From a virus (lineage: Duplodnaviria > Heunggongvirae > Uroviricota > Caudoviricetes), in the IMG/VR virus record IMGVR_UViG_2700989509_000007: DNA of 15,711 nucleotides; one strand, given 5' to 3'. Shown piece by piece: positions 12,001 to 15,000 of this stretch (positions within the stretch are counted from its first letter, which is position 1; the number at the start of each line of letters is the position of its first letter). Made by a program: the position numbers.

Positions 12001-15000
12001 CCTGCGCCTCCTCATTGCCAGCCATTAATTGCCAGTCACGCTGATAACGCTCGATGAGTTTTTTCTTGTCAGTTTCTGTTGACGCATAATCGCTGAAGTC
12101 TTTCAGGATTTGTTCGCAGTCAACCGATGGAGATTTCTGGTTGGTATTTTCTGGTGATGGTTTGTTATCTGATGCTGGGATTGCCCATCCCGGCAGCGAT
12201 GGAGGAAGCCAGTAAAATCCTGTTCCATCCTTCAGTTTTGCCCTGTGCCACCCCTGCTTTTTATCGAGAGATGTTTGTGCGAAACCTTCCTCAAGGTTAT
12301 ACAGATACCGACCGATTCCCCACTGAACGGCAGCACGCTTCATTGCACCGGAACGACCACCTTTTACGGCTTCTACCTGCGTGTTTTCAGCAGCATCCCA
12401 TTTGGTTACCCATTCGGAATCAATCCTGATTGATATGCCGCATTCAACGCCTCCGTTGTTGGGAATATCGCGGTATTCATTGCGCCATCCTGCTTTGCCG
12501 CAAACATCGTCCAGGCGTTTCATGATTGCCCTGTTCGTGACATAAGCCAGCACCATAGCCCACACCTTGCCATCGCGTGTTTTACCGCTTTGCTGTATTC
12601 GCCATTCGATATCTTCAGGGCAGAATGGCTCATCGAATTTGTTCAAATCCATAATTCACCTCAGAATGGACACGGCCCAAGGAAATAACGCTGATTTAAT
12701 ACTTCAGTCTTTGCCGCATTTAAAAATACGCGAACACCTTCACGATCTCCCTTCTGGCGATACATTAACGCCTGCTGCGTGTACATGCGTCTCTGTAACT
12801 TGCTCTCCTTCACTGTGGTTGCAAGTGACATGAATATCTCCTTCGTTACCGATTAAATCTTTCATCTGACGAATGAATTCTTCGTCTGACCAGTTATCTG
12901 TAAAACTCATTTCCTGCGATACCACGGAAGGTTGATAGCTGATTTCATCGCTTTATTTGCTTCAAGCCACATTTTGGAATCACCAATAAATCGGGCTATT
13001 ACTGCTTTGTTCTGTGCAGCACGAAGCATCTGGTGATTAATGGCTATTTCATTGCGCATAACGCCTCCAGTTGTTTCTTTGCTGCTCTGATTAATTGTTT
13101 AACTCGGCGTGATAATTCAGATTCGTGCGGGTAGAAAGCGGACATGACGCCGCTACCCGCGAGCTGAAAGTGCATCATGGGTAACTCCTTATATTTGATT
13201 GCATAACGAAAACGCCTCGAGTGAAGCGTTATTGGTATGCGGTAAAGCCGCGCTTAGGCGGCTGATGTTTCTTCTTTCAGGCTTTCGAGATATTTACGTG
13301 GGTCGTCGTAACATTGGCATTCGCTGTACCAATCCACCCAGCGATCAGTAAGCCCCATCTCTGATAAATCTTCATCGGTAAGGCTCTCATCCCACATCTC
13401 AAGGCCGTTAGCATTGCAGTAATCAGGCTTGATGTTGTTGTCATACTGAAAGGCGTCATAATCAGCCAGTGCGTCCATCAGACGAACACCCTCTTCAACA
13501 CTTGCCACTTCTACAATGAACGGCTTCATAGGTACTTGCGGGATATGCCAGACACGTAATTTCATATATCCTCCGTCAAAAAAATTGCCCTCACACTGGA
13601 GGGCAAAGAAGATTTCCAATAATCAGAACAAGTCGGCTCCTGTTTAGTTACGAGCGACATTGCTCCGTGTATTCACTCGTTGGAATGAATACACAGTGCT
13701 TATTCGTACTAATAAAATACCCAATTTTCTGTTTCTTGGTTGTGTCCAAAGTTATATTCAATATCTGGTGTTGATGTATCAATATTCTTCATACCATCAA
13801 CAAGAGTTGATACAACAGCCAAATCTTGTTTGATTCTCATTAAATGGTATTTCTTCCGGCGCAATAAACTTTCAATGGCAAGTTTCTTCGTTGGGAATGC
13901 AAAAGATCTTTCTGCATTTTTTGCTACTTTCTTAATTGCATATCTATTTCTCCTTTGTTTCCATTCCTGTAACCACTGATTTGGTGCTGGTTTAAAATTA
14001 ACAATCCAATGCGCAGGAACCAACCATGCATAATGCTCTGTCTGATGAAAAGCTATATATTGAAGTGCGAATATTTTTATCCCATCTTCTTCAACTGTCG
14101 CCTGGAATCTCCAGAAAACAGGCATTCCATCATGTTCAGTTTCTGATTCAGGAAAAGGTACGCTCCATGATTTTGTCATATCTCACCTCAAATAAGTGGT
14201 TTGCTGCCTAATTTCATTTTCTGGCGACCGACACAGGTCACACCCATTTCACTGCGTGGCTTGCTGTAGTAAATACGGTTCTGTTTACGCTCGACTTCTT
14301 CTGCCTTCTTGCAGCGAAGGCTTCCGAGTGATATTGCTTTTTCAGAAAGGCTTAAACGCTTTCTTGGGGCCTCCTGAACAGGTTCCTCACTGTCTGTGCC
14401 GAAGATAGAATCAATGATGTTACAGATAGCATCACGCTCAATAGCAAGCTTTCTGCGCCGCTCATGACGGCGAGTTTTGGCATTTCCTGCAAATGTTGAT
14501 TTTCCGTACACGATTACCGTCATGATGTTTTCCTCATGTGAAATGGCTTTGGTGGTGATGCGCCAGATGCTGATCTTCTGGTTGCTGTCGTTGCAGCTGC
14601 AATTCACATCACCGCCAAACCCATCTCGTTTGGTATCTGTTTGCGCTTTGTCAGCGCCCCATCGAAGTTAAAGAGCCTGCCAATCTGTTCCGTTTGACTT
14701 CCAGCTTCCTGCTGATGGCTTAAAGATAACCTAGGTTATAGGTGTGGTCAATAACTTAATTTATAATTCATGGTAAATAAGTTATAAGTTATGGATAACA
14801 AAGGTATTTTATTTTTGTAAATGTTGAGGATGAAGGTAAGCGTACAGCGAGGGCCGTATTGACGGGGATGTGTTATTCAGCTGGCAGTGCTATGCGCCAC
14901 GGAAGCAGTTCGCTGACCCGGTTGACCGGCCAGTCTGCTATGACGCCAAGCACATGGCGAAGGTAGCTTTCTGGATCCACGTCATTCAGTTTGCACGTCC

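Follow-up and report, generated by a model that had tools for sequence, protein, structure and literature searches.

The AT-rich ORF of 156 aa lying directly downstream of the antitermination gene N in the early-left operon was a genuine, conserved gene under purifying selection, and its context suggested a dispensable accessory cassette in the early-left (pL) operon of lambdoid phages, the product of which would be small, basic, and soluble. With regard to function, the reading we tentatively hold, at somewhat below even chances, was that the gene encodes an immediate-early accessory protein directed at a host or competitor target (ral-like counter-defense or host takeover), probably through its basic central segment. 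The gene would be among the first transcribed by 933W-type and Stx1 phages, yet it carries no annotation or recognizable domain.

Organization of the window

In the window (the whole stretch of 15,711 nt that was analyzed), two integrative elements flanked the tRNA-Arg(CCT) gene, one on each side, because the second integrase was the start of the prophage with the 156-aa gene; positions 1–4375 belonged to a different element from the prophage with the 156-aa gene. The minus strand of the window carried the early-left operon of a P22/lambda-type prophage (Table 1). Inside this operon, the match to sRNA-Xcc1 lay just upstream of an AntA-type antirepressor gene (9243–9860). Only about 85 nt separated the candidate pL promoter from the end of the IS66-family element upstream of it, and because this element splits the early-left operon from any immunity genes on its far side, the prophage may be defective or deregulated. 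A direct self-comparison of the locus gave no reverse-strand self-similarity.

Table 1. Positions of the features in the window.
Feature	Position	Strand	Basis and remarks
Collagen-like G-X-Y repeat protein, C-terminal part	120–689		GC about 0.7; probably tail fiber
OspG/NleH-like kinase	1057–1947		
NleD-like M91 peptidase	2178–2876		
Integrase of left element	2973–4175	minus	Beside tRNA gene
tRNA-Arg(CCT)	4301–4375		
Second integrase	4496–5740		Start of prophage holding the 156-aa gene
sRNA-Xcc1 (RF02221)	9901–9989	minus	Rfam match, 71 bits against a gathering threshold of 53, E 1.7e-11
kil	12907–13059	minus	cIII and kil together span 12907–13178; PF08134 E 2e-30, PF06301 E 1.7e-20
cIII	13044–13178	minus	PF08134 and PF06301 matches, E 2e-30 and 1.7e-20 for cIII and kil
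Gene-17 homologue (P22)	13254–13565	minus	PF17420 E 7.3e-56, phrog_1510; next gene downstream of the 156-aa gene
Intrinsic terminator	13578–13606 (called 13606→13585)	minus	TTGCCCTC-N6-GAGGGCAA then T7; scan; same site in L032
121-nt non-coding backbone block	13579–13699	minus	Hairpin and terminator, nearly invariant; E. coli search, alignment
Strong hairpin	13662–13699	minus	No U-tract; upstream (promoter-proximal) edge of the conserved block, next to cargo
156-aa gene	13709–14179	minus	ORF call, ATG start; identical to 933W L0079; PHROG 1636
Linker GCAGCAAACCACTTATTTGAGGTGAGAT	14180–14207	minus	N tail, TGA stop and ribosome-binding site; alignment of five contexts
N antitermination gene, 111 aa	14188–14523	minus	ATG at 14523; PF25694 N_peptide E 2.8e-26, phrog_271 E 3.2e-46
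nutL boxB-like hairpin GCGCTGACAAAGCGC	14643–14657	minus	Read from sequence
Candidate pL promoter	14723–14751	minus	TTGACC-17-TATCTT; promoter scan, consensus match only
ATAAC...GTTAT-type palindrome cluster and repeats	14720–14805		Overlaps candidate pL; includes the perfect 14-mer ATAACCTAGGTTAT
IS66-family element	14836–15711		Transposase 14873–15697 (PF03050); ends at about 14836 with GTAAGCG...

The 156-aa gene and its protein family

The GC content of the ORF was 0.357 (GC3 0.268), compared with 0.455 for the prophage arm and 0.46–0.48 for N, gene 17, and cIII, and just 0.6% of the 471-nt windows in the prophage arm were equally AT-rich. Between the TGA stop codon of N and the ATG of the 156-aa gene lay GGTGAGAT, a gap of 8 nt, and the Shine-Dalgarno sequence overlapped the N stop codon. 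These results bore out the initial annotation, which had described an AT-rich gene coupled to the stop codon of N. It had also placed the gene between N and cIII/kil; the gene does adjoin N, but the gene-17 homologue separates it from cIII/kil.

A total of 21 full-length homologues with 55–99% identity were obtained from Escherichia, Pectobacterium, Brenneria, Cronobacter, Rosenbergiella, and metagenomes, and 40 residues were invariant in the 22 sequences including the query. Across E. coli alleles, pN/pS was 0.07–0.24, indicating purifying selection. When 1.84 billion representative proteins were searched with the profile, 87 matched, including a wider family of 135–155-aa proteins that corresponded to phrog_13631, 25384, and 28215, all annotated as function unknown. 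The ORF is real because it has homologues with 40 invariant residues, a low pN/pS, and these 87 cluster representatives. Motifs common to the wider family were Y-R...G...(H)-E-T, K-R-I-x-K, and S-R-F-A-F-x-T-K-x-x-A...R-K-x-x-Q-L-x-H-L. Conserved positions of the protein included E46/T47, K87, R91/S92, and A101. Two long proteins among the profile matches, P0059 and P0081, were considered as fusions and rejected as repetitive or low-complexity chance matches.

The protein matched PHROG 1636 (annotated function unknown) over its whole length (E 2.7e-112, residues 1–156 against profile positions 1–156), as did all 64 members of the family alignment. Searches of Pfam, NCBIfam, PADLOC, and PDB sequences with both the single protein and the 64-member profile gave nothing significant; the sole match in PADLOC-DB v2, Cas1_II (E 0.018, 12.4 bits, 45 residues), was noise. 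Homology to a housekeeping phage function, which the initial annotation had set against its own proposal of a defense-related factor, was not found in the Pfam, PHROG, NCBIfam, and PDB searches. The protein was basic (pI 9.1, with a family median of about 9) and hydrophilic, had no transmembrane segment, and showed neither a secretion signal nor an effector-family match. Its charge was unevenly distributed: residues 73–120 had a pI of 11.4, and the N- and C-terminal parts were acidic. The structure model was weak (pLDDT 61.8) and gave no fold match; because of this weakness, the fold and nucleic-acid binding were beyond assessment from the model. An AP2/KilA-N/Bro-N-like fold was suspected from the R-F-A-F-x-T-K-x-x-A motif and was unsupported by the profile searches.

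The hairpin in a conserved backbone block

The perfect 9-bp stem claimed by the initial annotation was present (13667–13675 pairing with 13686–13694). As RNA on the transcribed strand, the hairpin was longer, having 14 bp in its stem, two of them G-U pairs, and 4 nt in its loop (13665–13696; dG −21.7 kcal/mol, z −8.55). Although it had been listed with the 156-aa gene, the hairpin is not a feature of that gene, because the 121-nt block containing it recurs in prophages with other cargo, and the places of the block outnumber those of the gene about fourfold. The block was found in 3199 places in 2237 of the 5426 complete E. coli genomes, was common to lambdoid prophages with differing cargo and differing downstream genes, and in many matches did not extend past about 13699, where the hairpin has its edge. 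In a lambda-like prophage (L013) the gene order was rexB-N-sieB-ral-block-ea10-cIII-kil-gam-bet-exo, the block lying between ral and ea10; it may correspond to a member of the lambda tL2 terminator cluster. From these comparisons, the hairpin is a backbone element and a recombination junction, where variable cargo joins the backbone. Because a non-coding sequence is so conserved, the block may have a role beyond termination; for example, it might serve as a linker in recombination, affect the processing or stability of RNA, or bind a protein.

No Rfam family was found for the hairpin or the 121-nt block. The prophage sRNAs AgvB/AsxR and Pas were considered as matches to the hairpin and rejected, as the literature on them concerns the late region, another site. 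A promoter-like site on the plus strand (13690–13718; TACACA-17-TAAAAT, 9/12 matches) overlapped the hairpin and was directed antisense into the 156-aa gene. It was kept in L032 solely because the whole sequence is conserved there, and the number of promoter-like sites in the region, including this one, was not above the chance expectation.

A swappable cargo slot downstream of N

Comparison of the window with Shiga-toxin phage 933W showed 99.4% identity confined to 13579–14241, that is, the last 53 nt or so of N, the 156-aa gene, and the block. Outside this segment, the window had a P22-type N and gene 17, and 933W had the 933W N and ea10/ssb. In complete E. coli genomes, the 156-aa gene occurred in 834 places in 598 of 5426 genomes, compared with the 3199 places of the block. 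The same slot was occupied by sieB and ral in the lambda-like prophage, ral and a 140-aa gene in UTI89, ral and two small genes elsewhere, ECs_1180 (83 aa) in Sakai Sp5, a Nmad5-family gene and the 156-aa gene in an E. coli prophage (L031), and a DUF5484 gene (45 aa) and the 156-aa gene in L032 and L030. The segment from the N tail to the 121-nt block thus reads as a swappable cargo slot bounded by short conserved linkers. The 156-aa gene holds the position of sieB/ral, since the same block is directly downstream of N-sieB-ral in the lambda-like prophage, and the reasoning from the place just after N in the initial annotation holds for a slot that varies across prophages. Because most lambdoid prophages with the same backbone lack the gene, it is dispensable.

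The upstream boundary was a linker that accompanied the 156-aa gene even where the adjacent upstream gene was not N. Its last 19 nt were identical in all five contexts aligned, and the full 28 nt in four of them. In every context the gene was preceded by ...TTATTTGAGGTGAGAT-ATG, and in four of five the preceding 28 nt were the N tail, even with the 45-aa DUF5484 gene intervening. The tight spacing of N and the 156-aa gene was therefore not universal, as the DUF5484 gene lay between them in two E. coli contexts. In L032 this gene was an unannotated Cys-containing ORF of 45 aa (2329–2463, minus strand; DUF5484 E 2.6e-12) located after a lambda-type N with the same TGAGGTGAG-ATG junction, and a remnant of the N tail was duplicated before the 156-aa gene; L030 was arranged in the same way. 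In L031 a putative nucleotide-modification gene of the Nmad5 family (2335–2958) was located between N and the 156-aa gene, and part of the hairpin-block edge (…AACACTGCACTG) recurred upstream of the latter, which suggests insertion at the GCACTG junction. Cassettes in the slot appear to have been stacked by recombination at the same short linker.

A classical moron, as Juhala et al. are said to have described it in 2000, is an extra gene with its own promoter and terminator. For the 156-aa gene, presence or absence within a conserved backbone was found together with atypical composition (834 against 3199 places; GC 0.357 against 0.455). Consensus scans gave it neither a promoter nor a terminator of its own; the terminator belonged to the backbone block and was kept in prophages without the gene. 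The bounded slot from the N tail to the block can be mined systematically for more accessory genes.

Predicted transcription from pL

The palindromes overlapping the candidate pL promoter look like OL operators of some immunity type. We take the boxB-like hairpin to be a P22-type boxB, and the arginine-rich motif of N to be of the P22 gene-24 type. Consensus scans found no promoter-like site on the minus strand between pL and the 156-aa gene, and no terminator-like site between the candidate pL (14751→14723) and 13606; going downstream from the candidate pL on this strand, the first terminator-like site was that of the 121-nt block. These calls are consensus matches, and a weak internal promoter or Rho-dependent termination is beyond the reach of such scans. 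Since there was no promoter-like site before the gene and no terminator-like site from pL to 13606, the 156-aa gene should be co-transcribed with N before antitermination is needed.

Distribution and neighborhoods of the relatives

The gene was identical in nucleotide and protein sequence to L0079 of 933W. It was also found in H-19B, BP-4795, phage 86, and Min27 and in many Stx1a/Stx2a phages, and its label was in every case ‘hypothetical protein’ or ‘prophage protein’. Of the complete E. coli genomes, about one in nine (approximately 11%) carried it. No published function for L0079, WP_000167595, AAD25424, or phrog_1636 was found in the literature searched. In Pectobacterium, a homologue with 63% identity adjoined xis-int, in the distal part of the early-left operon at its very end. 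Distant homologues in Marinobacterium and metagenomic prophages were among the small early genes from the repressor/recombination genes to xis-int, often with a DNA methyltransferase within a few genes. In Pantoea phage LIET2, presumably a lytic phage, the homologue belonged to the early gene cluster, and a methyltransferase was two genes away. In a Vibrio phage and Salmonella phage NX263, the homologue opened an early operon or lay close to its start, and in NX263 it headed a small operon of regulatory appearance (DNA-binding protein, MarR).

A Pfam survey of 87 neighbors in 10 IMG/VR loci of distant homologues gave mixed early functions, including a T7 gp5.9-like RecBCD inhibitor, Lar, cytosine methylase, SSB, a RecA-dependent nuclease, and KilA-N. 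There was no fixed partner gene among the neighbors of these 10 loci, and guilt by association is weak for this reason. No association with conjugative plasmids or leading regions was found; the only such matches were 11 non-mobilizable, phage-contig-like records.

Proposed role and alternatives

We infer a timing of expression, a benefit to the phage, nucleic-acid binding, and a counter-defense role as follows. From a pL transcript shared with N and not yet at the terminator, the 156-aa protein would be produced as soon as lytic growth or induction begins and not in the quiescent lysogen. It would then act on a host or competitor function for the benefit of the phage, as in ral-like counter-defense or host takeover. 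The probable interface is residues 73–120 (pI about 11), which might bind nucleic acid or a nucleic-acid-handling protein. The early operons of distant homologues, with DNA methyltransferases, Lar-like and T7 gp5.9-like proteins, SSB, and recombination genes, were counted in favor of this explanation. The gene would act alone, and the regions in which it lies contain genes for counter-defense and host takeover. The exclusion, anti-restriction, or other defense-related role proposed in the initial annotation agreed in part with our results: the slot position and the lack of housekeeping homology were consistent with it, but no known defense or anti-defense family was matched.

The same basic character could also point to a DNA- or RNA-binding regulator of the development of the phage itself (early transcription, replication, or the lysis-lysogeny decision) that is not aimed at the host. 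A conserved K/R-rich segment, a long amphipathic helix in the weak model, the position at the head of the regulatory-looking operon of NX263, and the adjacency to N would fit such a protein. However, a regulator is hard to reconcile with a dispensable gene that most lambdoid prophages of the same backbone do without and that Sakai Sp5 replaces with another gene. Furthermore, no helix-turn-helix or other DNA-binding family was matched by any of the 64 members, similarity to KilA-N, Bro-N, pRha, or AntA-type domains was found neither by profile nor by fold, and hhalign against AntA was negative. We regard this role as unlikely.

The position of sieB in the lambda-like prophage raised the alternative of a superinfection-exclusion or abortive-infection factor, a counterpart of sieB that is expressed from the prophage and guards the lysogen. 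Low GC is typical of lysogenic-conversion cargo, and 11% of the complete E. coli genomes have kept the gene, even in defective prophages like that of the window, which an IS66-family element cuts upstream of pL. Nevertheless, an early lytic protein of the ral type was favored over lysogen exclusion of the sieB type, because the gene runs with pL, lies upstream of the first terminator, and has no promoter-like site of its own, and sieB is on the opposite strand. The lack of a transmembrane segment, of a SieB match in Pfam, of an hhalign probability reaching 1%, and of anything significant in PADLOC also argued against exclusion, as did the homologue in the early cluster of LIET2, a presumably lytic phage. 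Exclusion was thus judged quite unlikely.

It is very unlikely that the protein alters the physiology or virulence of the host while Stx phages are being induced, as a trait akin to lysogenic conversion that has no part in conflicts between phages or between phage and defense. Such a role would fit AT-rich cargo with strong representation in Stx1 and Stx2 phages, but the gene also occurs in E. coli isolates that are not STEC (from dogs, poultry, and water) and extends to Pectobacterium, Brenneria, Cronobacter, Rosenbergiella, and marine phage contigs, and its product has no secretion signal or effector-family match.

If the preferred reading, an immediate-early protein with a host or competitor target, is extended to the relatives, PHROG 1636 and the 135–155-aa proteins would form a new immediate-early class of counter-defense or host-takeover proteins with an unrecognized fold, made with N before antitermination; we consider this extension rather doubtful. 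If it is true, the PHROG-1636 family, which 933W and most Stx1 phages carry, could influence the choice of E. coli strains that Stx phages infect or are induced in. Should the 156-aa protein neutralize host defense or reprogram the host, this would matter for how Shiga-toxin phages spread and which hosts they use. Its wide occurrence in Stx phages and its likely very early expression make the gene a sensible candidate for experiments.

Comparison with known systems

The closest counterpart was L0079 of 933W, with the same sequence (100%), the same place after N, and the same hairpin/terminator block behind it; the flanks differed, being the 933W N and ea10/ssb in 933W, and a P22-type N and the gene-17 homologue in the window. 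Lambda Ral resembled the 156-aa protein in occupying the same slot from N to the block, in being co-oriented with pL, and in being small, non-essential, variable cargo. No similarity to Ral was found in the Pfam, NCBIfam, and PHROG scans, and annotated ral genes were 201 nt, in contrast to the window gene encoding 156 aa. Lambda ral is located beyond tL1 and is N-dependent, and in this position it differs from the 156-aa gene, which directly follows N.

SieB of lambda and P22 shared the slot right after N. However, sieB was opposite to pL in the lambda-like prophage, whereas the 156-aa gene had the same direction as pL. SieB is a membrane protein, unlike the hydrophilic, basic 156-aa protein. 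No SieB family was found in the Pfam scan at E≤1, and hhalign of the 64-member alignment against SieB of the lambda-like prophage gave a probability of 0.6%. Expression independent of pL, as for SieB, did not seem to apply to a gene co-oriented with pL, 8 nt after N, and with no promoter-like site in the scans. By its arrangement, the 156-aa gene would follow the pattern of ral, running with pL, and not that of sieB on the opposite strand.

Silas et al. (bioRxiv 10.1101/2023.04.06.535777) described accessory regions of enterobacteriophages with conserved flanks, which contain known counter-defense genes such as ral together with genes without an assigned function. The 156-aa gene and its motifs were absent from the supplementary sequences and the 200 screened accessory genes of that study, and orf184, from the accessory region of ral, was a different protein beginning with MEALVVERSEDGYW. 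The slot of the 156-aa gene fits the same concept of a variable hotspot with conserved flanks. A variable accessory gene of the lambdoid pL operon is a well-known kind of element, and this sequence has been in the databases since the 933W genome.
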